A stretch of 64,000 bases of DNA from NCBI GenBank assembly GCA_965203805.1, contig OZ241917.1, forward strand, positions 5,760,001 to 5,824,000. Reading direction: 5' to 3'. Shown one piece after another: positions 4,294 to 46,770 of this stretch; the stretch's first letter is position 1; every line of letters starts with the position of its first letter. The notes under the pieces were generated by a model, which was not told the origin of the DNA, did no database searches, and saw only the letters and a list, made by a program, of their open reading frames with translations. The position numbers and the translations under genes were made by a program. Source of the stretch: Candidatus Latescibacterota bacterium. GTDB lineage: Bacteria > Latescibacterota > UBA2968 > GCA-2709665.

Positions 4294-5241
4294 CTACGCC
4301 TCTACTCCCGACATAAAACCCGGTACGCTGAAGTACCGTTCCGCCGAATCGCAGATCACCGTGGCCACGCGTTTGCCTTCGCCCAACTCTTTTGCCACCC
4401 GGAGCGCGGCCCATACGTTCGCGCCCGCCGAAATGCCGCTCAGGATGCCCTCTTCGGACGCGAGGCGCTTCGAGGTTTCGAACGCGTCGGCCTCGGTCGC
4501 GCAGATCACGTGGTCGTAGATCTCCCGGTTCAGTACCTCGGGTACGAATCCCGCGCCGATGCCCTGGATATCGTGAAGTCCCGGCGCGCCGCCGGAAAGC
4601 ACGTTTGACTGTTGCGGCTCCACCGCCACCACCAGGACCCCGGGCAGTTCCGCCTTCAGCACCTCGCCCACGCCGGTGATGGTGCCGCCCGTGCCCACGC
4701 CGGCCACGAACGCGTCCAGGCGCCCCTCCACCGCAACCAGGATCTCGCGCGCGGTTGTGCGGCGGTGAACCTCGGGATTCGCCGGATTTGCGAACTGCTG
4801 GGGCATGAATGTCTCGTCGGGGGCCTCCCGCGTGATGCGTACTGCCTCGTCCACGGCGCCCTGCATGTCCTCCGCGCCCGGCGTCAGGACCACTTCGGCC
4901 CCGAAGCTCTGCAAGAGATCCCGTCTCTCGCGGCTCATGGAATCCGGCATGGTCAGTATCAGGCGATATCCCTTCGCCGCGGCCACCAGGGCCAGGCCGA
5001 TGCCCGTATTCCCGCTGGTGGGTTCCACAACGGTCATGCCACGCTTCAGGCTGCCGTCGCGCTCGGCGGCATCGATCATAGCGTACGCAATCCGGTCCTT
5101 CACCGAACAGACCGGGTTGGAGGCCTCGATTTTCACGGCCACTTCGGCCATGCCCGGTTCCACCATCCGGTTCAGCCGCACCATCGGCGTCTCGCCGATC
5201 AGTTCAAGAATATCGTCCGCCACCGCGTTCGCCAATGGCAT
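4294..5241 (-). CDS. cysK: Cysteine synthase A
   Basis: IGETPMV, SVKDRIA (PLP lysine), EPTSGNTG, GVGTGGT, IQGIGAGF. Confidence 0.95.
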   Translation of the reverse strand: MPLANAVADDILELIGETPMVRLNRMVEPGMAEVAVKIEASNPVCSVKDRIAYAMIDAAERDGSLKRGMTVVEPTSGNTGIGLALVAAAKGYRLILTMPDSMSRERRDLLQSFGAEVVLTPGAEDMQGAVDEAVRITREAPDETFMPQQFANPANPEVHRRTTAREILVAVEGRLDAFVAGVGTGGTITGVGEVLKAELPGVLVVAVEPQQSNVLSGGAPGLHDIQGIGAGFVPEVLNREIYDHVICATEADAFETSKRLASEEGILSGISAGANVWAALRVAKELGEGKRVATVICDSAERYFSVPGFMSGVEA

Positions 5242-5250
5242 GTCGCTCCT

Positions 5251-5700
5251 TTATTGTTCTGTCCCGCGGGTCTCCACGGCCTCGATCGCCAGTTTTCCCA
5301 GCCGCTGAATGTCTTCCGCGATCGTATCGTCCTCGAGGTCGTCGGAGCCGCACCACCGGTATCCCTCCGCCTCGGAAGCCGACACCTTCAGGCTGCCGCC
5401 CGTGACTCGCGCGAAATAGATCAGGTCGATGTGCTGGTGGCCGGCTGAAATCTGTTCCAGGAGAATGCATTCGGGGCGGCTAAGCACGTCCACCGTGCCC
5501 ATCCTCGAGCGCGGAGAGAGCAGGGCTACCTCCAGACCGCATTCTTCCCGGACTTCCCGGACGGCCGCGTCACACGGCAGTTCGTTCTTGTCGATATGCC
5601 CGCCCGGAGGAAGCCACAGCCTGAGCCGCTTGTGAAACAGCAACAACGTCCTGCCGTCCCGGACGACGAACGTGGTTGCGGTGAAATCTCGCGTCGTCAT
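5251..5700 (-). CDS. NUDIX hydrolase
   Basis: Nudix box GGHIDKNELPCDAAVREVREECG; HQHIDLIY. Confidence 0.9.
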   Translation of the reverse strand: MTTRDFTATTFVVRDGRTLLLFHKRLRLWLPPGGHIDKNELPCDAAVREVREECGLEVALLSPRSRMGTVDVLSRPECILLEQISAGHQHIDLIYFARVTGGSLKVSASEAEGYRWCGSDDLEDDTIAEDIQRLGKLAIEAVETRGTEQ

Positions 5701-6226
5701 CACTCTGAATATACCTTGCGCGACCGGGGTGTGAAAGAACAAACGGACTGTGATTGGCGTGATTAAAACCTGATTGCCGTGATTAAGGCAAAGGCGGGGA
5801 CATGATGAGAAGGACAGAACCAGAAGAACGGGAAGAGGTGGTGGAAGCTGAGTGGGCTGATTGCCGGAATCCGGGGCGTTTACGCCGGCACGAAGGCACG
5901 TGGAATTCGCAAGTCAAAACCAACAATCATGGATATACAGGATGAACAGGATAAAACCCAAAGAACCGGGCAGGGGCGGTGGAAGCTGATTATGCTTGTT
6001 GCACGAAACCGATGTCCGTCCAGCGACGAGGACTCGGGTGGAATTCGCAGATCAAAAGCAAAAAACATGGATGGGCAGGATGGGCAGGATAAAACCAAAC
6101 GAAAAGGCAAACCCGGTGGAAGCTGAGCGGCCAGGCTGCGCGGAACCGGTCATGAACGCCGACCCGGATGTCCGGACGTCCCAACTGACCTGGTTTCTCG
6201 TACCGCCTTTTCCGGTTTTACGCCTT

Positions 6227-6782
6227 TATCCTGCCTATCCTGTGTATCCATGTTCCACTGCATCAATTCTCGATGGTCATTCGCTACCAACCATTACCGA
6301 CATGGATGGACAGGATAAACAGGATAACATCCAAACCGGAAACACCAGGTCAAGCCAGCACATCAATTAAACCTGCCGTTGCAGTTCCTGATTCAGGCTT
6401 CACGAGATCGATGTCGCACACTGCCTCAGCGTGCTTGTAATGTACTACGGAGTCTCGTCATCGGCCGCAGACCGACCCCTGTTTTGCCTCTATCCTGCCT
6501 ATCCTGTGTATCCATGTTCCACTGCATCAATTCTCGATGGTCATTCGCTACCAACCATTACCGACATGGATGGACAGGATAAACAGGATAACATCCAAAC
6601 CGGAAACACCAGGTCAAGCCAGCACATCAATTAAACCTGCCGTTGCAGTTCCTGATTCAGGCTTCACGAGATCGATGTCGCACACTGCCTCAGCGTGCTT
6701 GTAATGTACTACGGAGTCTCGTCATCGGCCGCAGACCGACCCCTGTTTTGCCTCTATCCTGCCTATCCTGTGTATCCATGTT
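6227..6782. repeat. Exact 264 bp tandem duplication (~2.1 copies)
   Basis: 6227-6490 is repeated from 6491; the ORF track shows identical peptides 264 nt apart (e.g. 6379 and 6643). Confidence 0.9.
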
Positions 6783-6825
6783 AAATCGTGTGTTGCTTCT
6801 TGGGTTGTGGGGTGTCGTCATCCGT

Positions 6826-7209
6826 CTACCAGATGGTTTGTGCGTAATACGCACGGATGATCGCATCGGAGGTGACGATGGGGCAGGCGTTCAGGCTGGC
6901 CGTGGCGACGATGGTCCGATCGGCGGGGTCGCGATGGTCCCAGTCGAGTTCGAGATTTCCGAGCCACGTCCGGACGCAGACAGGGAGGATTTCGATGCGG
7001 TCGACCTGTTCCAACCTGTCAGCGAATTCCCGGATTGGAATCGGTATAAACAGTTGTTCTTTCTTGACCTTGATACCGATTTCCCAAATCGAAATCGCAC
7101 TGAGGGCAATCCTGTCGGCGTCCGCAATCGCCTGTGTGGCAGCATTCGACAGCCGATCTCGATCGAGCGTCCAGAATATGAGGGCGGAGGTGTCCAGGAG
7201 GACCATCAC
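6826..7209 (-). CDS. vapC: VapC/PIN-domain toxin
   Basis: VLLDTSALIFW...SAISIWEI...HRDPADRTIVATA...VTSD PIN signature; overlaps antitoxin stop. Confidence 0.9.
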   Translation of the reverse strand: MMVLLDTSALIFWTLDRDRLSNAATQAIADADRIALSAISIWEIGIKVKKEQLFIPIPIREFADRLEQVDRIEILPVCVRTWLGNLELDWDHRDPADRTIVATASLNACPIVTSDAIIRAYYAQTIW

Positions 7210-7436
7210 ATTTCCGTCCATTCATCGGCGGTCGGAAGGTTGACGTCGTCGCGGTAGATGACCTGGCCCGAAAGCGCGCCGAACACGTCGTCGACCGTCT
7301 TCTTTCTCGAAATCGGCTGGATGCGCAACACCGGGCGCCTGCGATCCGTTACGATCAACGACTCGCCGGATTCTTCAAGCTCGCGAAAGATGCGAAGCAT
7401 ATTGGCTTTCAATTTGCTCTTTGAGATGGAATTCAT
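7206..7436 (-). CDS. Phd/YefM family antitoxin
   Basis: ISKSKLKANML...GESLIVTDRRRPVLRI; 76 aa, directly upstream of PIN toxin. Confidence 0.85.
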   Translation of the reverse strand: MNSISKSKLKANMLRIFRELEESGESLIVTDRRRPVLRIQPISRKKTVDDVFGALSGQVIYRDDVNLPTADEWTEM

Positions 7437-7458
7437 ACGATCTCCTTACGTACTAGAA

Positions 7459-7513
7459 ATGACTATAGTCATAACTATGGTCATAATATACATAAATCAA
7501 GATATACTGTCAA
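7459..7513 (-). promoter_or_regulatory. Sigma70 promoter and palindromic operator of the TA operon
   Basis: Minus-strand TTGACA (7508-7513) N17 TATATT (7485-7490); palindrome ATGACTATAGTCAT (7459-7472) with an adjacent near-copy. Confidence 0.7.
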
Positions 7514-7681
7514 TTGAAACGACAGGGTATGACTAACCGGGACAAATCGAAAATTTCACATGGATGGACAGGATAGTGCTATCAAAAGTCCAAATTTCCG
7601 GCTGGCGGCGCACGGGAAATCTTGATTCTGTCGCGACGTTGGTTAAATTAGCCTTATTATCATAAGGAGAAGAAAATGCAC

Positions 7682-7966
7682 ATGAAGAATCCGCCGCATC
7701 CCGGGCTTTCGATACGGTTCGACTGTCTGGAGCCACTTGGATTGACTGTAGAACACGCAGCGCGAAAACTCGGCGTTGACAGGAAGGAGTTGTCAGATGT
7801 CGTTCACGGCCGAGCCGGCATCTCGCCCGAAATGGCGATTCGTCTGGACAAAGCCTTCGGCGGTGGCGCGCAAACGTGGTACCGGATGCAGGCGGCCTAC
7901 GACCTGGCTCAGGCGATTGCGAAGGCCGAAGAGATTCGCGTTGAGCGCCTCGTGGTTCACAGATGA
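7682..7966 (+). CDS. higA: HigA family HTH antitoxin (no adjacent HigB toxin)
   Basis: MKNPPHPG...AARKLGV...[14 protein letters not shown]...W.RMQAAYDL. Confidence 0.9.
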
Positions 7967-8280
7967 TTCCTGACTCGGCCCCGAGCACAATGGCTATTCT
8001 GTTCCTTCTTCTGACGGCATGATGCCGTTTTCGTTTCACCTGACCTGGTTTCTCGTACCGCCTTTTTTGATTTTACGCCTTTATCCTGTCTATCCTGTGC
8101 CGCTATGTTTCATTTTTCCTTGTCAGGATGATTGAGAATAAGATCAGTTTAAATCTCTCAAAGGTACAACTGTCCAATTAATGAAGCACAGGGGATTTTG
8201 ATTCCTCGAGACGATACGTTATATTCATCCCAATAGAAAACGTCAGGGATCGCATCACAACCCAAACCCGGAGGGTCACC

Positions 8281-8499
8281 ATGCAGACCACAACGCCCGC
8301 CGGCGATTTCGACGCCAGGCTTTCCCGCGTCGAGGGGATCGTTGAGCAGCAAAGCCAACGCTTGACGGCCCTCGAAACACGCGTTGACGCCGGTTTTCGC
8401 GAAGTGAACGCCCGCCTCGATAGCGGGTTTCGCTGGATTGTCGGCATTCAGTTTACTACGCTGGTTGCGCTTGGTACGCTGATTCTCTTGAAACTCTAA
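8281..8499 (+). CDS. Small coiled-coil protein with C-terminal transmembrane helix (DUF1640-like)
   Basis: GGAGG SD; heptad pattern then FRWIVGIQFTTLVALGTLILLKL. Confidence 0.65.
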   Translation: MQTTTPAGDFDARLSRVEGIVEQQSQRLTALETRVDAGFREVNARLDSGFRWIVGIQFTTLVALGTLILLKL

Positions 8500-8516
8500 C
8501 CCACCATCGGGCGCTG

Positions 8517-8671
8517 GGCCGGCATCTCGCCCGAGATGGCGATTCGTCTGGACAAAGCCTTCGGCGGTGGCGCGCAAACGTGGTACCGGATGCAGGCTGC
8601 GTACTACCTGGCTCAGGCGATGGAGAAGGCCGAAGAGATTCGCGTTGAGTGCCTTGTTTTCCACGAATAAA
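8517..8671 (+). pseudogene. 5'-truncated second copy of higA
   Basis: Near-identical to 7814-7966 (GCCGGCATCTCGCCCGA..ATGGCGATTCGTCTGGACAAAGCC...) but lacks the 5' half. Confidence 0.85.
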
Positions 8672-8744
8672 TCCGACTCGATTCCGAGCGCATCTGCCAC
8701 GCGGATTTTCTAATATCTCCAACTGCCTTTTATACATGGATGGA

Positions 8745-8777
8745 CCTGTCTGCGTGCGTGCCACACGCACAGGCAGG
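8745..8777. mobile_element. 33 bp palindromic element inserted in a CAGGAT repeat
   Basis: CCTGTCTGCGTGCGTGCCACACGCACAGGCAGG splits CATGGATGGA^CAGGATGAACAGGAT; identical copy at 15960-15992. Confidence 0.75.
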
Positions 8778-8960
8778 CAGGATGAACAGGATAAAGATCA
8801 CATACCTGCAATTTCCAGTCATCCCTGCGCACGATTCATTCCCGTCTTGTAGGATTTTCCTCCGCACGACATGAGCTCATTACGTCCCACCTGACCTGGT
8901 TTCTCGTACCGCCTTTTTTGATTTTACGCCTTTATCCTGCCTATCCTGTGTATCCATGTT

Positions 8961-9572
8961 TCATGTTTCGTTCTTCCGGTTTTCGTCGGTTTCTTCCCAT
9001 GCCTTCGTGAACGTCTCCGGCTCCACTCCGAGCGCATCGGCCACGCGGTTGATGTAGTTGAAAAAGCCGATGATCTGGACGGCATCGTGGATGGCGCGGT
9101 CGTCGAAACCGTGCTCGCGCAGCCGCTTGATATCCGCGGCGGTCGAGTCTCGCGGGTCCAGGCTGAGCTTCTCCGCGAAGGCGCACAGCGTACGGTCGGC
9201 GGGGGAGAGGGGGGCCTGGCGCCAGTCGGCGGCAATCAGATGCACCAGCCGGTCGGCCTCACTGTCATCTTCAACGCTGAAATCCGCGGCGACCTCGGCA
9301 CGGAGGTCGTGGGCGTGGGCGCGTATTCAGTACACGCAATGGTTCGCTGCTGAAACGACCACGGCGAGCATCTCTCGCTGCGCGCGGCTGAGCGGGGAGG
9401 GGCCGTGCATCAACGCGCCGTAGAAATCCAGCGACGCCTTCATCGCGCGGGGGTTCTGGCTCATCGCGGAGACAATGCCCCAGACGCGCCCCTCCCGCCC
9501 CATCGCGGCGTCATATTGTTGCTTCAACAAACCCGTCGCGGCCTCCGGAGGAATGACGTCGATATAGGGCAT
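8961..9572 (-). CDS. AhpD/carboxymuconolactone-decarboxylase family peroxidase-related protein, candidate selenoprotein (CxxU)
   Basis: ATG at 9572 after AAGGAGG; in-frame TGA at 9327-9329 in EMLAVVVSAANHCVY*IRAH; same frame continues to FFNYINRVADALGV; hairpin CGACCTC-CGTGCC-GAGGTCG just downstream of the TGA. Confidence 0.8.
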
Positions 9573-9665
9573 CGCGGCCTCCTTCGCAATATGGATCAAT
9601 GCGGAAACGGCAAAACCAAAAAGGCAAGGCAACTTCAACGACACAAAACAACAAACATGGATGAA

Positions 9666-9698
9666 CCTGTCTGCCGTGCCGGGCACGGCACAGGCAGG
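9666..9698. mobile_element. 33 bp palindromic element inserted in a CAGGAT repeat
   Basis: CCTGTCTGCCGTGCCGGGCACGGCACAGGCAGG at the same register as 8745; the duplicated locus at 12270 lacks it. Confidence 0.75.
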
Positions 9699-10150
9699 CA
9701 GGATGGGCAGGATAAAACCGTAAGAAACTACGAAAATCGCGAGAGTCACGAAAACCGCAAAGAACAGGCCAAGTCAAAACCGCCAAACATGGATGGACAG
9801 GATGAAACCACAACAACAGGGCAAAATCGGTGACAATTGTCTGCGCTCTTTGCTTGAGACCGACGCTCGAATTACGACACGGAGTCACGTGGACTACGCA
9901 AGTCAAAGACAATAAACATGGATAGACAGGATGAACAGGATAAAACCACTAAAACAGGCCAAATTCGGTAGAAGCTGACTGTCTACGTTGCCGGAAACCG
10001 AGGCACGAACGCCAACACGGACTCAGGTGGGAAAACCTAAACAACAAACATGAACAGACAGGATGGACAGGAAAAAAAGGAAAACAGAGCCGCAAAACCA
10101 GATCAACTGAATTGTTTCAAATTGCCAGATTCAGATTATCCATCGACATC

Positions 10151-10178
10151 TTGACAATCGCTCCAAATATACTATACT
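10151..10178 (+). promoter_or_regulatory. Putative sigma70 promoter
   Basis: TTGACA N16 TATACT. Confidence 0.5.
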
Positions 10179-10373
10179 TATGTGCAGTATTTGAGTTTGG
10201 CCTGCTATGCGATTCTGTATTGTGCCGACATATCGACGATTCGTCTGTGCAGTACCGGTTCGCGATTACTTTATTCACCCATCAACATAAGATACGACAG
10301 ACTGAAGATTCAAATCTGCAGATTTACGTTGTCGTCGTAGAGTTCGGGACGTCGGTTGCTGAGGTTAAGAAAA

Positions 10374-10703
10374 ATGAGTGCCGTTGACAAATTCCACGAC
10401 GAAGCCATGGAAGCCGCTTTTTTCGCCGATCAAGAACGGCGTAGGGGAAACAAAGAGCGGTCAGAGGAGTTGTTTGACCAGGCCCTGAGCCTGGAACTCA
10501 AGGCGCTCAGTGAAATGTCCGAGCCGGTGGAGCCAACTTATTCGATACTACACCGTAGTGCCGGGTGGCTGGCTTTGGACTGCAACCAGCCGCGCCTGGC
10601 AGAGCAGTTAGCCAGCAAAGCGCTTGCTGGCGAGCCGGACCCTCGAATTGCCGAGGAGCTCCGCAACCTGTTGGAAAAGATTAAAACCAATAAACATGGA
10701 TAG
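10374..10703 (+). CDS. Small helical (TPR-like) hypothetical protein
   Basis: MSAVDKFHDEAM...EPTYSILHRSAGWLALDC; stop codon falls inside a repeat copy. Confidence 0.6.
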   Translation: MSAVDKFHDEAMEAAFFADQERRRGNKERSEELFDQALSLELKALSEMSEPVEPTYSILHRSAGWLALDCNQPRLAEQLASKALAGEPDPRIAEELRNLLEKIKTNKHG

Positions 10704-10877
10704 ACAGGATGAACAGGATAAGACCAACAAAACCGGGCGAATTCGGTGGAAGCTCATTACGCATGTTGCCGAAGCCGATGTCCGAACGCCAACACGGAGT
10801 GACGTGTAATTCGCAGATCAAGACCAACAAGCATGGATGAACAGGATAAAACCGGAAGGCAGGGCAGATGCGGATAC

Positions 10878-10980
10878 TATAGAGAAAAGGATGTTTGACA
10901 AATGCTTCAAAAAATCACGCTGATCATTGCCTTCAACAAGCGGTTGTATTTTCGAATTTATCCCCTCGGCTCGCGACCTC
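10878..10980 (-). pseudogene. Possible remnant of DUF3226-like ATPase partner gene
   Basis: Immediately downstream of the ATPase: INSKIQPLVEGNDQRDF/(frameshift)/EAFVKH, then truncated near the repeat array. Confidence 0.45.
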
Positions 10981-10981
10981 C

Positions 10982-12025
10982 CTATCGAACCTCGAGATTA
11001 TTTCGGATTGCGGAATCGATTGCATCAGGTTCATAGGTGATACAACGGCTTGTTTTCTCGGCAATCTCGAGCCTGTGTAGCCGAAACCTGTCGTTGCTGA
11101 GAGAATCATGAGCTGCCACTATGCATTCCATACTGTGCGTGGTTGCGAATATCTGAGTCCGAAACTGCCTGGCCGCTTCATCGATAACGCGCCATACATC
11201 AGGTAGTGCCGTGTGGTGTATGCCGTTTTCGAGTTCATCTATCAAAACGACACCATCCGGTACGGAAGCGATACTCAATACAAGGCGGGCGACCTGGGTC
11301 ATGCCTTCGCCCATTACGGATAGCGGTACCAATTCGGACCATCCGATATCTCCCCAGATCATAGGTGAACCACTGGAAGATTTGTCCTCAATGCTCAGTA
11401 ATCTCGGTTCGAAAACCCGCAGTGCCTTCAGGAGCATATCTCCCCGCTCTTGCTGCCTTAACCGTCCAAACCTTACTGCGTCTTCGTGAATATTCCGATT
11501 TCGAGACGCGAGGATTATCGCCTGAAACGGGGGACTTGTCGGAGGCTGATCTACCTGAAAGCCCTGTTCCTTCATACGTATCTGGCTCGTTACCGAATTC
11601 GCTGACGGTCCAGTATACTCAAACGCGAGCAATTGCTCGTTGAGGAAATTTGTAGTGGACGTTCCATTCGTTCGGTCAAGGGGTATTTCGGTCGTCGGCT
11701 GTCTTTCCGAAGTGATCTTAAGGGTCAATTGAACGCGTGTTGAACGACGCGCGGTAATCTCGATCGATCGTCCCATATCCCGATTGAAAAAAAGCTGTTT
11801 CCAGAACGGATCGCCCGTAGAAACCCCGTGTGGCGCCAGGTCCCGAATGCCATTGTCATTCATTGCCAACTGAGTATTCCCCGCTCCGGACAGAAGAAAA
11901 ACCGCTTCAAGCAGGCTTGTCTTTCCAGAGTTGTTTTTCCCGGCAATCAGGTTGATGGCACTCAAGTGGTCAATCTCAAGCGCACCAAACCCACGGAAAT
12001 TACGTATCTGCAGGCGTGTCAACAT
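10982..12025 (-). CDS. ABC-type AAA ATPase (AAA_15/AAA_21, defence/TA-associated)
   Basis: IRNFRGF, Walker A GKNNSGKT, signature GEG, Walker B LIDELENGIH, TTHS; lower GC than core genes. Confidence 0.9.
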   Translation of the reverse strand: MLTRLQIRNFRGFGALEIDHLSAINLIAGKNNSGKTSLLEAVFLLSGAGNTQLAMNDNGIRDLAPHGVSTGDPFWKQLFFNRDMGRSIEITARRSTRVQLTLKITSERQPTTEIPLDRTNGTSTTNFLNEQLLAFEYTGPSANSVTSQIRMKEQGFQVDQPPTSPPFQAIILASRNRNIHEDAVRFGRLRQQERGDMLLKALRVFEPRLLSIEDKSSSGSPMIWGDIGWSELVPLSVMGEGMTQVARLVLSIASVPDGVVLIDELENGIHHTALPDVWRVIDEAARQFRTQIFATTHSMECIVAAHDSLSNDRFRLHRLEIAEKTSRCITYEPDAIDSAIRNNLEVR

Positions 12026-12126
12026 CGCCGCGTCTCCCGGCTTTCAGCCAACGACCCAAACTGATGCGGTTCGGACATTATATCGAAAATGATTGTGTAA
12101 ATCAAATCGTTCAACGATGACGCCGA

Positions 12127-12186
12127 ATACTGCTGCTTCAACAAACCCGTCGCGGCTTCCGAAGGAATGACGTGGATATAGGGCAT
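12127..12186 (-). pseudogene. Duplicated 5' fragment of the AhpD-like gene with its upstream region
   Basis: MPYIHVIPSEAATGLLKQQY vs MPYIDVIPPEAATGLLKQQY; ~12128-12300 matches ~9515-9720. Confidence 0.85.
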
Positions 12187-12816
12187 TCGCGGCCTTTTTC
12201 CGACATGGATCAATGCGGAAACGGAAAAACCAAAAAGGCAAGGCAACTTCAACGACACAAAACATCAAACATGGATGGACAGGATAGTCAGGATAAAACC
12301 ACAACAACAGGGCAAATGCGGTGGAAGCCGAATGCCTTGGCTGTCAGCGGACCCTCCAACGCTGACACGGAGTCACGTGGAATAATCGAAACCAAAACAA
12401 CAAACATGGATGGACAGGATACACAGGATAAGTGCATAAGAACGGGGCAAATACGGCGGAAGCTGAATGCCTTGGCTGTCCAGCGGACCCTCCAACGCTG
12501 ACACGGAGTCACGTGGAATAATCGAAACCAAAACAACAAACATGGATGGACAGGATACACAGGATAAAACCACTAAAACAGGGCAGAAACGGCGAAGCAG
12601 ACTATGCTTGTTGCTTGACGCCGACGCCTGAACGCCGACACGGACTCATGTGGACTTCGCAAGTCAAAGACAATAAACATGGATGGACAGGATGAACAGG
12701 ATAAAACCACTAAAACAGGGCAGAAGCGTTGAAGCCGATTATGCTTGTTGTACGAAACCGACATCCGGCTGCCGACAAGGACCAGGTTTTTTCCAATCAA
12801 TCCAGAGGTGTCGTTT

Positions 12817-13227
12817 TTATTCCTGCCCTTTCTGAGTCCGTGTAAATCGTTTAAACTCCAACTTAGGCTTCCCGAAGTTGATCAGCAGCCCCACCTCAAC
12901 GCGGGTGGCATTCAGATAGTTGATGATCTGGGCTTCGTGCTCCCTGGTGATGGCTCTGACCGCCTTGAGTTCCACGATCACTTTGTTCTCCACCAGAATA
13001 TCAGCGACATAATCGCCGACCGTTTCACCTCGAAAACGCACACGAATAGGCCGCTGTGTTTCGTGCGAAATACCGGCGTCGGTTAAGGCAACTTTCATCG
13101 CCTTCTCGTAAACTGATTCCAGGAATCCACTCCCGAGTTCTTTCGTCACGTCCAAAGCACATCCGATTATCTTCCGGGTCAAGCCAGCGTGTAACAACCC
13201 TTTATCTTGCCTATCCTGTCTATCCAT
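12817..13227 (-). CDS. GxxExxY protein (PD-(D/E)XK nuclease superfamily)
   Basis: LT.KIIGCA..V..ELGSGFLESVY, ADILVENKVIVELKAV, AQIINYL, GLLINFG; N-terminus MDRQDRQDK encoded by a repeat copy. Confidence 0.92.
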   Translation of the reverse strand: MDRQDRQDKGLLHAGLTRKIIGCALDVTKELGSGFLESVYEKAMKVALTDAGISHETQRPIRVRFRGETVGDYVADILVENKVIVELKAVRAITREHEAQIINYLNATRVEVGLLINFGKPKLEFKRFTRTQKGQE

Positions 13228-13699
13228 AGTTTCCCTGTTTCAAATCTCGATGGACCTTCGCTACCGTTTGCAACTTACATGGATGGACAGGATACACAGG
13301 ATGAAAACCTACAAAAGCCGGCAAAGCCCGTCAGTGATTCGAGTCGATGTTGTCTGATTCTCGTTCTTCGACTTGTTTCTTCCCCGTTACTTGTCTTTCT
13401 GCTTTTATCCTGCCTATCCTGTTCATCCGTGTTGTATGGTTTTGATCTTTCGTCTTGGTTCTTCCCCGTTGTTGTCTGGCTCTTATCCTGCCTATCCTGT
13501 GTATCCATGTTTCGTGGTCTTGATTTTTCGATTTGCTTTTCCCCGTTGTTGTCCCGCTCTCTGGTTTTCAGGTTTTGTCCTGTTTCTCCATGATTCCTGG
13601 GTCTTCGGTTTGCTTCTTCCCGTTTTTTTGGCTTTCCGCTTTTATCCTGTCCATCCTGTATATCCATGTTCCCCTGTATCAATCCTCGATGGTCTCTCG

Positions 13700-14197
13700 C
13701 TACCACCCGCCCACCTGCGTCCGGTCCACGATATCCCGTGTGAGGATGTCGAACGCGGCGCCGAGGCCTGCGTGCCGGGCTTCCTCGCGCTGGCCGGCGG
13801 CGCTGTAGATACCGTATCCCTTCAGGCGCTTCTCCTCCCACAACAGCTTCTTGTTCTTCACGTCGAAACAGCTGACGTCCAGGAAGACCGAAATCTGGAA
13901 CTGGTCCTCCTGGCCGCGGTAGGTGAACGGGTCGTCCCGCACCTCCACGATCGTGCCGCGAAGCACGACGTCCGCACGGTCCTCGTCCGTCACGCGCAGC
14001 GCCGCGTCCTGGATGAACGCCTGGATCAGGCTGTCCGTTAGGGCCTGCTGGATCTCCGGCTCCAGGCTCTCGTTCTCCATCAGCGGAATGGCCACCGAGC
14101 GGAAACCCGATCCGCCGGTCGCGGAGGTCGAATAGTACGCGCATCCGCCCAGCCCGAACAGGACCAGCGCGGCGCAGGGAAGGAGAGAACGCTTCAA
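13700..14197 (-). CDS. lptE: LptE-like lipoprotein
   Basis: Lipobox LGGC, SVAIPLMENES, ADVVLRGTI. Confidence 0.75.
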   Translation of the reverse strand: MKRSLLPCAALVLFGLGGCAYYSTSATGGSGFRSVAIPLMENESLEPEIQQALTDSLIQAFIQDAALRVTDEDRADVVLRGTIVEVRDDPFTYRGQEDQFQISVFLDVSCFDVKNKKLLWEEKRLKGYGIYSAAGQREEARHAGLGAAFDILTRDIVDRTQVGGW

Positions 14198-14646
14198 TCC
14201 GATTCCTCCTTCGCTTCCGAGGCGTCCTCCGCCGGCGGATCCGCTGACTTCGCTTCCTCTGGCGTCTCGGCTTCATCGCTTTCGGCGGTATCGTCCCCGG
14301 CAGTCGCTTCGACGTCCGCGGCGGGCGCCTCGGCCTCATCCTCGGACGCCTCCGCCTCGTCCGGACCCTTGTTCGCTTCGTCCACGTAGTTCATCCTCAA
14401 CTCGTACAGCGCGTGCTCCAGAAACTTCTGTTCGTTGTCGCTGAGATTGCCCTTCGTCTTCGCCTGAAGCATGCCCAGGATATCAATGGTGTTCTTCGCC
14501 TGCGCGAGGTCCCGTTCCACCTTGTTGGTCGCCGGGTTCATCACCTTGCCCAGATGCTGCCAGGCCGCCCCCTGAAACATCAGCACGACCTGCGTAAACA
14601 GAAACTCGTTCATCTGCTCCTGGGAGATGGATTCACTTTCAGCCAT
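14194..14646 (-). CDS. DUF1844 domain protein with acidic tail
   Basis: AWQHLGK..NP...RDL.QAK.TIDILGMLQ.KTKGNL..E...L..ALYELRMNYV. Confidence 0.85.
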   Translation of the reverse strand: MAESESISQEQMNEFLFTQVVLMFQGAAWQHLGKVMNPATNKVERDLAQAKNTIDILGMLQAKTKGNLSDNEQKFLEHALYELRMNYVDEANKGPDEAEASEDEAEAPAADVEATAGDDTAESDEAETPEEAKSADPPAEDASEAKEESD

Positions 14647-14923
14647 GTCAATAACCTCCTTGAAATGATTGACTTATTCACTTCGTGGCAATGTGCTGAT
14701 ATGGTCCTGAATCGTTGTGTGGGTAGACGTTAGCCTCAATCCGAAAAAAACAGCAACGCGGCGACGCGATAAAACCTTCCGAAACGGGGTGTTATCGACG
14801 TATAGAAGGACGTTCTTTCCCTTCACGTCCAGTGACCTGGTGTATCCTGGTAATCCGCCGTCTAATCGCCTTTATTTACAAGCACATATTCGAATTTACG
14901 TCCCCGAAGACTTACGAATCAAG

Positions 14924-15150
14924 GTTAGACGTAAGAGGGGAGAGATTACCAGCCCTGTGAGGTCTCAATTCAGGCCGGAGGCTTTAAGGAAGAGCATATC
15001 GGGCAAGGACTTCCTCTACCGTCTTGCGTCTCACGTCTCACCGGTTTTATGGAAGAACCAATCGGGCAAAGATGTCCTCTACCGTCTACCGTCTCCCGTC
15101 TCACCGCTTTCAGTTCTTCCTTCTTCCTTCTTCCTTTTCCCTTCTCACCT
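14924..15150. repeat. Heptamer-based repeat element
   Basis: ttagacgtaagagggagaga ... tcgggcaa.ga..tcctctaccgtct..cgtctc.cgtctcaccg present twice (~14999, ~15062); shared with 21245-21300. Confidence 0.65.
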
Positions 15151-15777
15151 CTTCCCCCCTATCGCTTCCTTTAATTTCGCCATCGCCGTCCCGGCGTCCG
15201 CCCATCCGCGGACGATGTCCATCTGCGCGTCGCCCCGTTTCACGACCACGCTGGGAAACTCCCTCACGCCCATCGACCTGCGCAGGTTGAAGCCCGCCTG
15301 CAATTCCGCCTCGATTTCCCGAGACCGGATATCCCGGTCGAACCGTTGCGCGTCCAGCGGCGGAGAAAGCGACCTGGCAACCGCGGTCAGCGTATCGACG
15401 TCCGAGGGGTTCCGCGCCTCCCGATAATATGCCCGCTGGATGGCATCGAACATTTCGGGCGCGGCGTCGTCCCGCTGCGCCCCTGCCGCCAGCACCGCTC
15501 GGCAGGCCGGGTAGGTCGACCGGCGAGGTTTGCAGTTGCGCCAGAAGTCCCAGTTGAATTCAGCCCCCGTCGTCTTTGTGACCTCACGCCAGTTCATCTG
15601 TACGTACGCGCGGGTCTCTTCCGGCATCGGATCCTCCGAATCCCTGGCCAGTCCGCCCATCACGTAGATCACCGGGATGGAATCCGGAAGCGCCGCCACA
15701 ATTTCCTGAAGTACCGGCCGGAACCCCCAGCACCACGAACACATGGGGTCGGCCACGTAATAGAGTCTGTGATCCAC
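15145..15777 (-). CDS. DsbA-like thioredoxin-fold protein
   Basis: YVADPMCSWCWGF, GGLA, RRSTYPACRAV, GV.EFPSV. Confidence 0.9.
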   Translation of the reverse strand: MDHRLYYVADPMCSWCWGFRPVLQEIVAALPDSIPVIYVMGGLARDSEDPMPEETRAYVQMNWREVTKTTGAEFNWDFWRNCKPRRSTYPACRAVLAAGAQRDDAAPEMFDAIQRAYYREARNPSDVDTLTAVARSLSPPLDAQRFDRDIRSREIEAELQAGFNLRRSMGVREFPSVVVKRGDAQMDIVRGWADAGTAMAKLKEAIGGKR

Positions 15778-45792: not shown

Positions 45793-46659
45793 TCAGGACT
45801 CCCGAGTTTCGCGCCGGTCCAGACTCCAGTCCAGTTTTCGACTGAGCAACTGATAGAACGACAGTCCCTGGAGGTTGATCAGGCGGGTCGTATGGGCGGC
45901 CTGTCGGATGTGCACGCGTTCTTCAGGCTGTATAGGTGAGACGATCTTGCCGTCGGCAGTTACCATGATATCGGTGTGTTCGGCGATCACCTGGACGGTG
46001 ATCGACTGACTGTCCGGTACGACGGCGGGACGCAACGATAGCGAGTGCGCGCAGATTGGCGTGACGATGAATGCCCGCAAATCCGGATGGACGATGGGCC
46101 CTCCCGCAGAAAGGCTGTAACTGGTTGATCCCGTTGGGGTTGAAACGATAATGCCGTTCCCGAAAAAGGAGCTGAACGGCGTTTCGGAAATCCAGGACTT
46201 CACCTGGACCAGGCGGGCGAGCACCGCTTTTTCGAATGTGAACTCGTTGAGCGCGAAGAAGGTCCTGTCGCCGATTTCCGCTTCGAGGACCATGCGTTCC
46301 TCGAGCTGGTATTCCCCCCGCCTCAGTCTGCCCAGACTCTCCCGCAACTCTTCTGGCGCGGCCCCGGCCAGAAACCCCAGCCGCCCGAGGTTGACGCCCA
46401 GAATGGGCTTCTGCGAAGCGCCGACCAGGTTGGCCGCGCGCAGAATGGTGCCGTCTCCTCCCAGGGCGACAACGATATCCGAACAACCGGCCAGGTGGGC
46501 GCCGGGCCGGTAAGAGACTCCGCTGGAGACGCAGACTTCCCTTAACGGTTCCTCCAGAATGAGCTCGATGTCCTGGTCCTGCGCGAGCCGCACGAAATTC
46601 TGGATGAGGGGACCGATGCCGTCCCGTTCGGTATATGCAAGAATGCCGATGCGCTTCAT
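45793..46659 (-). CDS. nadK: NAD kinase
   Basis: GGDGTIL, GVN.G.LGFL, ALNE, TPTGST.Y..SAGGP. Confidence 0.95.
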   Translation of the reverse strand: MKRIGILAYTERDGIGPLIQNFVRLAQDQDIELILEEPLREVCVSSGVSYRPGAHLAGCSDIVVALGGDGTILRAANLVGASQKPILGVNLGRLGFLAGAAPEELRESLGRLRRGEYQLEERMVLEAEIGDRTFFALNEFTFEKAVLARLVQVKSWISETPFSSFFGNGIIVSTPTGSTSYSLSAGGPIVHPDLRAFIVTPICAHSLSLRPAVVPDSQSITVQVIAEHTDIMVTADGKIVSPIQPEERVHIRQAAHTTRLINLQGLSFYQLLSRKLDWSLDRRETRES

Positions 46660-46770
46660 GATCAGGATTTACAGGATTTACGGGATTGAGCAGGATTAGA
46701 AACCAAGAGCAGGATCAAAACCGATCAGGATCTACGGGATTGAGCAGGATTTAGATTCCAAGAGCAGGAC
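46660..46770 (+). repeat. Second cluster of 9-nt periodic C(A/G)GGAT repeats
   Basis: caggatttacaggatttacgggattgagcaggatta...caggatctacgggattgagcaggattt. Confidence 0.8.

Follow-up and report, generated by a model that had tools for sequence, protein, structure and literature searches.

Whether a small nuclease-like gene acts on the short repeats among which it lies, or merely shares their neighbourhood, is the question raised by an 8-kb island in the genome of a Candidatus Latescibacterota bacterium (G000; a single contig of 5,865,457 bp, 59% G+C, 99.8% complete). The island belongs to a 64-kb stretch of this genome (bases 5,760,001-5,824,000, hereafter the window), extends from a NUDIX hydrolase gene to lptE, is dense in one short motif and holds a gene of the GxxExxY family (PF13366, also named PDDEXK_3; TIGR04256). 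This family is large and found across phyla, and the function of PF13366 is given as "Unknown" in a survey table (PMC3424549). We found no description of flanking periodic repeats for GxxExxY/PDDEXK_3 or for PF05635, a second family treated below, in the full-text literature, a body that does not cover most subscription journals and supplements. The GxxExxY gene of the island is located between inverted copies of a dispersed repeat, which points to an undescribed partnership between gene and repeat. A relationship of this kind, likened to that of repetitive extragenic palindromic (REP) sequences and the REP-associated tyrosine transposases (RAYTs), had been suggested by a first-pass annotation of the window. 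Comparison with other genomes lends support to the nuclease-repeat idea, whereas the accompanying views of the neighbouring genes as cargo and of the repeats as a local feature had to be revised.

A GxxExxY gene between inverted copies of a periodic motif

The motif reads ATGGAT-nnn-CAGGAT-nnn-CAGGAT, usually with AAAACC next, and consists of three 9-nt units (ATGGATnnn, CAGGATnnn and CAGGAT). A search with the pattern ATGGATNNNCAGGATNNNCAGGAT at up to two mismatches returned 19 matches in the window, all within 5929-13667, and none in 100 shuffles. At up to four mismatches the island holds 24 copies, and partial copies at 5799, 7558, 9787 and 10831 bring the total close to the figure of about 27 given by the first-pass annotation. 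The motif is purine-rich on one strand and non-self-complementary, and hairpins form only from pairs of copies.

Two of these copies enclose the GxxExxY gene. Its first eight codons (MDRQDRQD) coincide with the motif copy at 13204-13227, which has one mismatch and makes up the 5′ arm, and the inverted 3′ arm lies 115 nt downstream of the stop codon. The gene had been placed at the centre of the island, with the two largest arrays converging on it. It is instead found at the right edge, although it does stand between the largest plus-strand array and the minus-strand array.

The encoded protein scores 144.2 bits against PF13366 (cut-off 22) and 145.2 bits against TIGR04256 (cut-off 35). E37, Y40, D76, E86 and K88 are invariant in an alignment of 61 sequences, and the motif region reads G32-S-G-F-L-E37-S-V-Y40, that is, G34-x-x-E37-x-x-Y40, with G32 and G34 nearly invariant in the 61 sequences and invariant in an 11-sequence alignment. 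The AlphaFold 2 model (predicted local distance difference test score 91.9) adopts a PD-(D/E)XK, restriction-endonuclease-like fold. The top Foldseek matches in the PDB were Cas4 SSO0001 (E 1.8e-4, TM-score 0.55), lambda exonuclease and LHK-Exo, with Hjc lower, and a TM-score of about 0.5 is a modest likeness; at the sequence level there was no PDB match. With its catalytic residues intact, the protein is a predicted nuclease.

G000 carries three full GxxExxY genes (window 12817-13227; genome 865176-865520 and 3308074-3308412), and these three paralogues have three different arms. The CAGGAT motif is present near the window gene only, and the clade of the window gene, which we call the cognate gene of the motif, is represented by one copy in G000.

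Periodic arms at GxxExxY loci of other genomes

An unbiased set of 29 PF13366 loci was obtained by hidden Markov model (HMM) search of relatives, and the flanks of 30 relatives were inspected. Positions displaced by 700 nt in the same loci served as controls, and inverted arms were counted at a score of at least 14. In the comparison that the first-pass annotation had proposed, a short periodic motif stands 5′ of nearly every PF13366 gene in the relatives, with its reverse complement or a direct copy on the 3′ side. Arms were detected in 24 of the 29 loci (inverted in 11, direct in 12, with an 8-10-nt period in 15) and in 2 of 28 controls. A second, cross-phylum set of 80 loci, with one genome per species, was returned by a search seeded with two peptide patterns, and here arms accompanied 51 of 74 loci versus 3 of 63 controls. 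Inverted arms occur at 11/29 and 36/74 loci in the two sets versus 0/28 and 0/63 controls. One of the seeding peptides is encoded by the motif itself; however, the arm is coding in only 9 of 76 scored loci, and inverted arms were present in 31 of the 67 cross-phylum loci that the motif peptide could not have seeded.

The sequence of the arm follows the clade of the protein across phyla, which bears out a co-variation that had been proposed at the outset. Arm motifs of the types ACGAA, CACRAAG, AATCACA, CGCAGAT/CGCGGAT and CAGGAT were distinguished by protein clade, and at least three arm 8-mers are common to 3.8% of locus pairs below 40% protein identity, to 41% at 60-70% and to 77% at 70-90%. 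The closest relatives of the window clade (60-74% identity) come from Dehalococcoidia, Opitutales, Chloroflexota, Limisphaerales, Chthoniobacter, Nitrospirae, Brocadiaceae, Anaerolineae, Pirellula and Leptospira records, and CAGGAT arms accompany the clade in those of Dehalococcoidia, Opitutales, Nitrospirae, Brocadiaceae, Pirellula and Leptospira. In these loci ACATGGAT-nnn-CAGGAT-nnn-CAGGAT lies 5′ of the gene and its reverse complement 3′, often directly past the stop codon. Since clade-matched arms surround the gene in other phyla as well, gene and arms appear to travel together between phyla.

A similar design was seen for a second family. Genes of relatives that encode four-helix-bundle proteins of PF05635 are nested between periodic arms of 7-nt units (13-17 of 27 flanks versus 3-5 of 26-27 controls). 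Two papers place PF05635 in rRNA intervening sequences (PMC3936711, PMC11270868), and one of them calls the function of the protein uncharacterized (PMC11270868). As the units are 7 nt long at PF05635 genes and 8-10 nt long at GxxExxY genes, the period of the repeat goes with the encoded protein, which is most simply explained if the enclosed protein contacts the units.

One PF05635 gene of G000 (L143, G000:C1:1101813-1102130), with inverted 7-nt arms, is placed inside a coding gene that reads continuously on both sides of it (...GEPDI, insert, VHGVDVFHPNTGEV...); this host gene looks like a methyltransferase, judged from the flanking residues alone. The same type of placement was found at L156 (G021) and L157 (G023), in two genomes of a sister family.

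Distribution of motif and gene

The confinement of the motif to about 8 kb, as described in the first-pass annotation, holds within the window and fails for the genome as a whole. G000 contains 57 exact copies in 33 clusters, with 17 copies in the island and one or two in each other cluster, and 75 copies at up to two mismatches. All 14 other species of the genus carry the exact motif as well (5-86 copies), as does one genome of a second genus; it was found in none of three further genomes from the family and in one of 12 from a sister family. The reversed pattern, used as a control, gave 0 matches in all genomes of this survey.

Across 125 genomes of the phylum, 18 have the exact motif (15 genomes of the genus, G015, G021 with 5 copies and G105 with 1 copy) and 107 have none. 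A gene of the window clade (at least 75% identity) occurs in four of the 125 (G000, G008, G015 and, broken, G011), and all four carriers have the motif, in 11-57 copies. Five carriers from other phyla hold 9, 4, 52, 75 and 41 loose copies, against 0 for the reversed control, and in four genomes (G053-G056) a single PF13366 gene is accompanied by 9, 4, 52 and 75 copies. As an independent replicate we took the family of one of these five carriers, in another phylum; among its 41 genomes, the three carriers have 75, 56 and 37 loose copies and rank first, second and fourth; apart from four non-carriers considered below, one further non-carrier has 11 copies and the remaining 33 genomes have at most 7. 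The Fisher p values are 0.0002 for the phylum and 0.003 for this family, and they overstate the case because related genomes are not independent. In both genome sets the gene never occurs without the motif, while the motif sometimes occurs without the gene, always in close relatives of carriers.

Apparent turnover at the hsdR-hsdM junction

Of 110 GxxExxY loci, ten are placed between the hsdR and hsdM genes of a single family of type I restriction operons. We compared 23 homologous hsdR-hsdM operons from the order (L173-L195), whose hsdM genes are 80-100% identical, and the junction was found in several states. No arm motif was seen in G022, and a single arm unit is present in G028 and G026. 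ORF-less arm-to-arm hairpins (ORF, open reading frame) occupy the junction in two operons each of G021 and G023; such an ORF-less version was also found at L070. In other genomes the junction is filled by GxxExxY genes with clade-specific arms, at least three clades being represented (G027 and G050; G045, G051 and G046; G008, G011 and G015), G012 has CAGGAT arms around an unrelated filling of about 330 nt, and in G015 two cassettes, GxxExxY and hicAB, are separated by motif hairpins. A group II intron reverse transcriptase gene (RVT_1 and GIIM) is also present at the junction of G008. This is the pattern of a putative element with autonomous and non-autonomous forms that turns over fast at a favoured site.

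A candidate gene-repeat partnership

We propose that the GxxExxY protein would bind its own arm repeats on DNA, with one protomer per unit, and would then cut or recombine at the arms. Solo arms and arm hairpins without an ORF would have reached intergenic DNA through such activity, present or past. Copies recombining with one another could in turn have made the 137-nt and 78-nt units of the island grow in tandem and caused local duplications, and small cargo genes would have come and gone in the same way between lptE and the nearby AhpD-like gene. That the GxxExxY gene and its two arms form a self-serving unit, whose PD-(D/E)XK protein acts on its own periodic arms, is quite possible, and we put it forward tentatively. 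It draws on the architecture of the unit, the generality of the arms, their co-variation with the protein clade, the co-distribution in two phyla, the polymorphism of the junction and the intact catalytic residues, all of which were observed.

A wider version of this proposal is conceivable, although we hold it with more doubt. PF13366 proteins may be trans-acting nucleases of a widespread, horizontally moving class of gene plus repeat, in which each clade reads its own arm of 8-10-nt units and spreads or maintains solo arms and hairpins, building cassette islands and hot spots such as the hsdR-hsdM junction. PF05635 would then represent a parallel class with 7-nt units, and together the two would be ultra-compact mobile cassettes that end in arrays of protein-binding units.

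Several observations weigh against the proposal. No target-site duplication or clean insertion boundary was found, either between empty and filled hsdR-hsdM junctions, which have a common arm-like unit and no clean duplication, or at genome site 3603072, where a 400-nt composite present in G000 and not in its nearest relatives looks like a replacement. Among the other species of the genus the cognate gene occurs only in G008 and, broken, in G011, although the motif is present in 14 of 14: the genome with most copies (G012, 86) has no cognate gene and one PF13366 gene of another clade, G009 has 24 copies and no PF13366 gene at all, and PF13366 gene counts per genome do not track motif counts. 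In the family of the other phylum, four non-carriers have 18-42 copies, and their genomes may be incomplete. For a second arm family (CTACGAA type), the excess in carriers reaches p = 0.02 only when copies at the gene's own locus are included, and p is 0.16 when these are removed by hand count. Motif arms also bracket hicAB and other cargo. The PF05635 protein is not a nuclease and has the same arm design, and a mechanism common to both families and independent of the encoded protein could be at work. At one orthologous site compared in five species, moreover, identity is 98% over the three hexamers and 37% and 59% over the flanks, and the gene is missing from four of the five; conservation in species without the gene points to a use of the motif that is independent of the GxxExxY protein.

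The first-pass annotation had held that a genome-wide spread of the motif, with no enrichment near GxxExxY genes, would speak against a link with the gene. In part this is what was observed: the motif is spread over 33 clusters, and within the genus it occurs independently of the gene; this test is not decisive, because the REP sequences of RAYT systems are genome-wide as well.

Alternative readings of the motif

The strongest alternative is that the motif serves the host as a cis element, recognized in DNA or RNA by a host factor at the ends of genes, and that GxxExxY, hicAB and other small genes are passengers that home in or are tolerated, the nuclease not being the spreader. All 74 placed copies (at up to two mismatches) are intergenic according to our own crude gene caller (4470 genes), and their 5′ sides lie mostly 21-76 nt from the end of a gene, either following a stop codon of the same strand (often TAG) or next to the start of a divergent gene. 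Some positions are kept across the genus, namely about 33 nt past the lptE stop codon, directly past the stop codon of the AhpD-like gene and ahead of its start, whereas other intergenic sites are lineage-specific. The conserved hexamers noted above and 13 genomes of the phylum that have the motif without the cognate gene argue in the same direction, and the motif in turn serves as a target for the insertion of a small palindrome. However, the absence of the motif from 107 of 125 phylum genomes argues against a general host signal, and it reappears in other phyla along with the gene clade. Nor is its orientation towards the adjacent genes fixed (24 and 9 copies in the two orientations at divergent starts, 19 and 3 at stops), and none of ten consensus promoter-like sites falls on a motif copy. 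CsrA, the obvious reader of GGA motifs, is absent. We regard a host element of this kind as rather unlikely; the conserved copies would be either kept by a host factor or a non-cognate enzyme, or given a host use after spreading.

A role of the motif as a CsrA sponge was considered, as CAGGAU units resemble CsrB repeats, and was rejected: PF02599 had 0 matches in G000, and control genomes did match.

The palindrome that targets the motif is about 27-36 nt long, GC-rich (CCTGCCTGC...GCAGGCAGG type) and always placed at one fixed point, between ATGGATGGA and CAGGAT. It was found in at least 12 motif copies, at 8737-8790 and 9656-9720 of the window and at least 10 other places of the genome, and also in the post-lptE copy of G003 and G007. 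It is a putative second-order element that targets the motif.

Alternatively, the arms may act in RNA, like the stem of 23S rRNA intervening sequences, with pairing of the transcript leading to processing (for example, by RNase III) or to stabilization of the mRNA, and mobility coming from elsewhere. Complementary arms enclose the ORF in 11/29 and 36/74 loci, PF05635, placed in rRNA intervening sequences by the papers cited above (PMC3936711, PMC11270868), has the same design, and some cassettes lie inside operons between hsdR and hsdM. Mismatches between paired arms, however, are 46 G:T versus 58 A:C, with no excess of those compatible with G:U wobble pairs on the sense strand, and the arms are direct in 12 of 29 loci. 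It follows that an RNA stem is not what is conserved, and the lack of a wobble bias fits recognition on DNA. Most copies in G000 are solo, the periodic units and the protein-family-specific period would be left unexplained, and the 137-nt units fold no better than shuffles on either strand (z -0.2 to -2.2) and have no shared fold. A mechanism in RNA thus seems improbable to us.

It is more improbable still that the repeats are slippage-born tandem repeats or local satellites in dispensable DNA and that GxxExxY merely occupies the same neighbourhood with no functional link. The genome does hold several other intergenic short-period families (periods 7 and 8), the island contains plain duplications, and the intergenic regions compared are highly variable between species; the displaced controls, however, are almost free of arms (2/28 and 3/63), arms follow the protein clade across phyla, and gene and motif co-occur in two phyla.

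Finally, an integron-like cassette array, in which the repeats would be attC sites clustered without an integrase, is hardly credible: single-gene cassettes, including toxin-antitoxin pairs, are indeed separated by same-orientation repeats, and the GxxExxY and hicAB cassettes of G015 by imperfect palindromes, but the genome has no integron integrase (best TIGR02249 score 93 bits, cut-off 265), the 137-nt unit does not read as an imperfect palindrome and its folding does not exceed that of shuffled sequence, and no GTTRRRY/RYYYAAC core sites were seen by eye.

Organization of the island

The features of the island are collected in Table 1. The arrays correspond well to those first described. 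The plus-strand arrays, reported with a period of about 129-138 bp, consist of units of about 137 nt in four blocks (tandem-repeat period 136-137, 3.4-3.9 copies) with a motif copy at the head of each unit, and the minus-strand array, reported at about 79 bp, has a period of 78 nt at 13367-13560, with one further minus-strand copy at 13644, whose position after lptE is kept across the genus. Of the 137-nt unit, the 30-45-nt motif core alone has counterparts outside the island, and the other 90 nt or so are private to it. Within the arrays the sequence between motif copies is repetitive too, so that the unique spacers required of a CRISPR array are lacking, and no Cas family was found among the Pfam and PADLOC matches of the island ORFs tested; nor was any transposase family among their Pfam matches. 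Three sets of public contigs compared with 5500-14300 end at the motif, and the sides of the joints, 20-27 nt, equal the motif in length, so that these sets carry no information on strain polymorphism.

Table 1 Features of the repeat island, in window coordinates
Feature	Position	Strand	Details
NUDIX hydrolase gene, left conserved border	5251-5742	-	PF00293 E 2e-14; syntenic in 8/13 relatives' loci
137-nt repeat, ~2.2 units	5844-6140	+	Motif heads each unit (copies 5929, 6067); repeat found in the island only
264-nt tandem duplication, 2.1 copies, 99-100% identical	6222-6782 (exact 6222-6749)	unstranded	Outward-facing inverted motif pair per copy
vapC (PIN, 6826-7221) and vapB (Phd/YefM-like, 7206-7436)	6826-7436	-	7/13 relatives' loci, 68-86% identity
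higA antitoxin gene, conserved neighbour	7676-7966	+	TIGR02607 E 3.8e-28
Palindrome-split motif copy	8737-8790	+	~30-nt palindrome between ATGGATGGA and CAGGAT
Motif copy directly 3′ of the AhpD-like stop codon	8924-8967	-	Position kept in relatives
AhpD/CMD-family peroxidase-related gene, conserved neighbour	8961-9572	-	In-frame TGA at 9327-9329 (CVY-U)
Palindrome-split motif (9656-9720), partial copy (9787) and ~2 137-nt units (9833-10080)	9656-10080	+	
115-aa ORF, no family match, variable cargo (also G009)	10356-10703	+	Stop codon inside motif copy (10696)
137-nt repeat, ~1.3 units	10683-10860	+	
AAA_21 ATPase gene, AbiLi-like, variable cargo	10982-12025	-	PF13304 E 5.5e-23; PADLOC AbiLi E 3.9e-53
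Copy of AhpD 5′ end and upstream region, 87% identical to 9513-9666	12127-12280	unstranded	cmdN residues 1-23 at 83%
Largest array, 3.9 units of 136-137 nt	12258-12782	+	Its last motif copy (12679-12702) forms the GxxExxY gene's inverted 3′ arm
GxxExxY PD-(D/E)XK gene, intact ORF	12817-13227	-	PF13366 E 2.8e-42; TIGR04256 E 1e-42
Outward-facing inverted motif pair	13194-13310	unstranded	13204-13227 (-) and 13279-13302 (+); z -6.68
78-nt array (copies 13407, 13485) and copy 13644	13367-13677	-	Copy 13644 lies 33 nt past the lptE stop codon TAG
lptE, right conserved border	13700-14197	-	PF04390 E 1.7e-11; 13/14 genus genomes match, 88-98% identity

The inverted motif pair of the 264-nt duplication can fold as a hairpin (z -6.46 for 6222-6330), and the 37-nt spacer of the pair at 13194-13310 occurs four times in the island. 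An Rfam search of 5000-15000 returned only sub-threshold matches of microRNA models on the inverted motif pair and no rRNA. The earlier suggestion that the arrays yield small RNAs is supported neither by this search nor by the folding of the 137-nt units. The 3′ part of higA is duplicated (8513-8674, 162 nt, 90% identical to 7809-7970), and, like the 264-nt duplication and the copied 5′ end of the AhpD-like gene, it is a mark of recombination between repeats; the AhpD copy is an apparent trace of repeat-mediated rearrangement.

To place the island in the genus, lptE was located in 13 of the 14 other genomes, and up to 18 kb beside each was compared. PIN/Phd genes are present in 7, higA in 6 and the AhpD-like gene in 11 of these 13 loci, in conserved order and with 68-89% amino-acid identity. 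In view of this synteny, vapBC, higA and the AhpD-like gene are resident genes rather than the cargo for which they had been taken, while the AAA ATPase gene does vary between relatives. Variable content is found mainly between the AhpD-like gene and lptE: a hicAB pair in G006, G010, G004 and G002 (identified by translation of the spacer alone), AbiLi in G014 and, in five genomes, inserts longer than 12 kb. A type I restriction system is contained in at least some of these inserts, with a GxxExxY gene in G008, a broken one in G011 and one of another clade in G013. The 115-aa ORF is placed elsewhere in G009, between higA and the AhpD-like gene. The locus is an apparent genus-wide hot spot in which small genes are gained and lost between motif copies.

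The AhpD-like gene looks broken by plain translation, with its two halves in frame around a single TGA. The same in-frame distance of 84 nt separates the halves in the loci of 11 relatives, the gene read with TGA as selenocysteine fits TIGR01926 (E 2.5e-41, residues 7-185), and a selenocysteine tRNA gene is present at genome 1837979-1838076; a hairpin lies 3′ of the TGA. From the in-frame halves, the TIGR01926 fit and the tRNA, we conclude that the gene is probably an intact CxxU selenoprotein gene that ordinary ORF calling splits in two.

Known AbiL systems consist of two genes. The AbiLi-like ATPase gene of the island has no recognizable adjoining partner, with about 120 nt from its stop codon to the repeat block, and an 85% identical copy occurs at the same place in G014. 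A promoter-like site at 10151-10178 lies ahead of the 115-aa ORF. Between higA and its copied fragment (region 8158-8700) there is a 72-aa ORF with no family match (8281-8499, plus strand), distant copies of which (31-36% identity) are found in the islands of G001, G009 and G013.

Other repeats were observed in the same genomes. A second 9-nt periodic family (GGATCAGGATTTACAGGATTA..GGATTAAGCAGGATTAGAAACC) occurs at 46640-46760 of the window (genome 5806663) and at about 12 other places, often beside the first motif. At 14980-15155, beyond a DUF1844 gene, there is a 63-nt tandem repeat (2 copies, 83% identical) built from 7-nt units of the CGTCTCA/TCTACCG type and followed by TTCTTCC heptamers. 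Heptamers of these families make up the most frequent intergenic repeats of period 7 in the genome (about 55 doubles) and resemble the arms of PF05635 genes in relatives. A 155-nt piece of a 400-nt intergenic composite (L203:1264-1418, equal to G000:C1:3603263-3603417) matches 17 places of G001 over about 143-160 nt at 85-98% identity, and 4 more over shorter lengths; in G001 it looks like a recently active family of the miniature inverted-repeat transposable element (MITE) type.

Discussion

Of the known systems, RAYT/REP offers a close parallel. RAYT genes encode HUH/Y1 (IS200/IS605-like) transposases, and the associated REP sequences are short, imperfectly palindromic, GTAG-headed repeats dispersed genome-wide. 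Here, too, a single-copy gene stands between inverted copies of a short repeat that is also scattered over intergenic DNA in tens of copies, some of them tight inverted doublets, and the repeat family follows the clade of the gene. However, the enzyme is of the PD-(D/E)XK type and not an HUH/Y1 transposase, each arm is a triplet of 9-nt units and lacks the palindromic, GTAG-headed form of a REP sequence, the gene moves from one phylum to another, and many relatives retain the repeats without the gene. Identity with a RAYT was rejected, as PF01797 (Y1_Tnp) has only two weak matches in G000 (genome 4533812 and 4547970, 35-37 bits), both well away from the island.

Like insertion sequences and MITEs, the unit has one gene between terminal inverted arms, exists at the same site in arm-to-arm versions that lack an ORF (G021, G023; also L070) and is polymorphic for presence and absence. 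In contrast to such elements, the GxxExxY gene is single-copy (one cognate gene in G000, one PF13366 gene each in G053-G056), no target-site duplication was found, GxxExxY is not a known transposase family, and the unit measures only about 0.55 kb. The 23S rRNA intervening sequences with PF05635 likewise have a small ORF in complementary arms inserted in operons or genes. The unit of the window, however, is not in rRNA, the GxxExxY protein is unrelated, the units are 9-10 nt instead of 7 nt long, and there is no sign of selection for RNA pairing. Integrons and clusters of attC sites lacking integron integrases (CALIN) resemble the island in their small single-gene cassettes, often of toxin-antitoxin genes, and in variable cargo between conserved borders, but the island has no IntI and its repeats are not attC-like hairpins. 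Finally, the short tandemly repeated repetitive (STRR) heptamers of cyanobacteria are intergenic short tandem units of fixed period, as are the repeats described here. To our knowledge no link of STRR sequences to an encoded protein has been described, whereas here the period and sequence of the repeat go with the enclosed gene.

If members of the family act on their own flanking repeats, PF13366/TIGR04256 would gain a function, and a PD-(D/E)XK counterpart would be added to the RAYT/REP partnership. It would also explain the common intergenic periodic repeats that look like junk and break assemblies, as well as the coming and going of small defence and toxin-antitoxin genes at fixed spots where neither an integrase nor a transposase is at hand. 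Since each clade has its own arm, the idea lends itself to direct testing with the three paralogues and three arm types that G000 carries.

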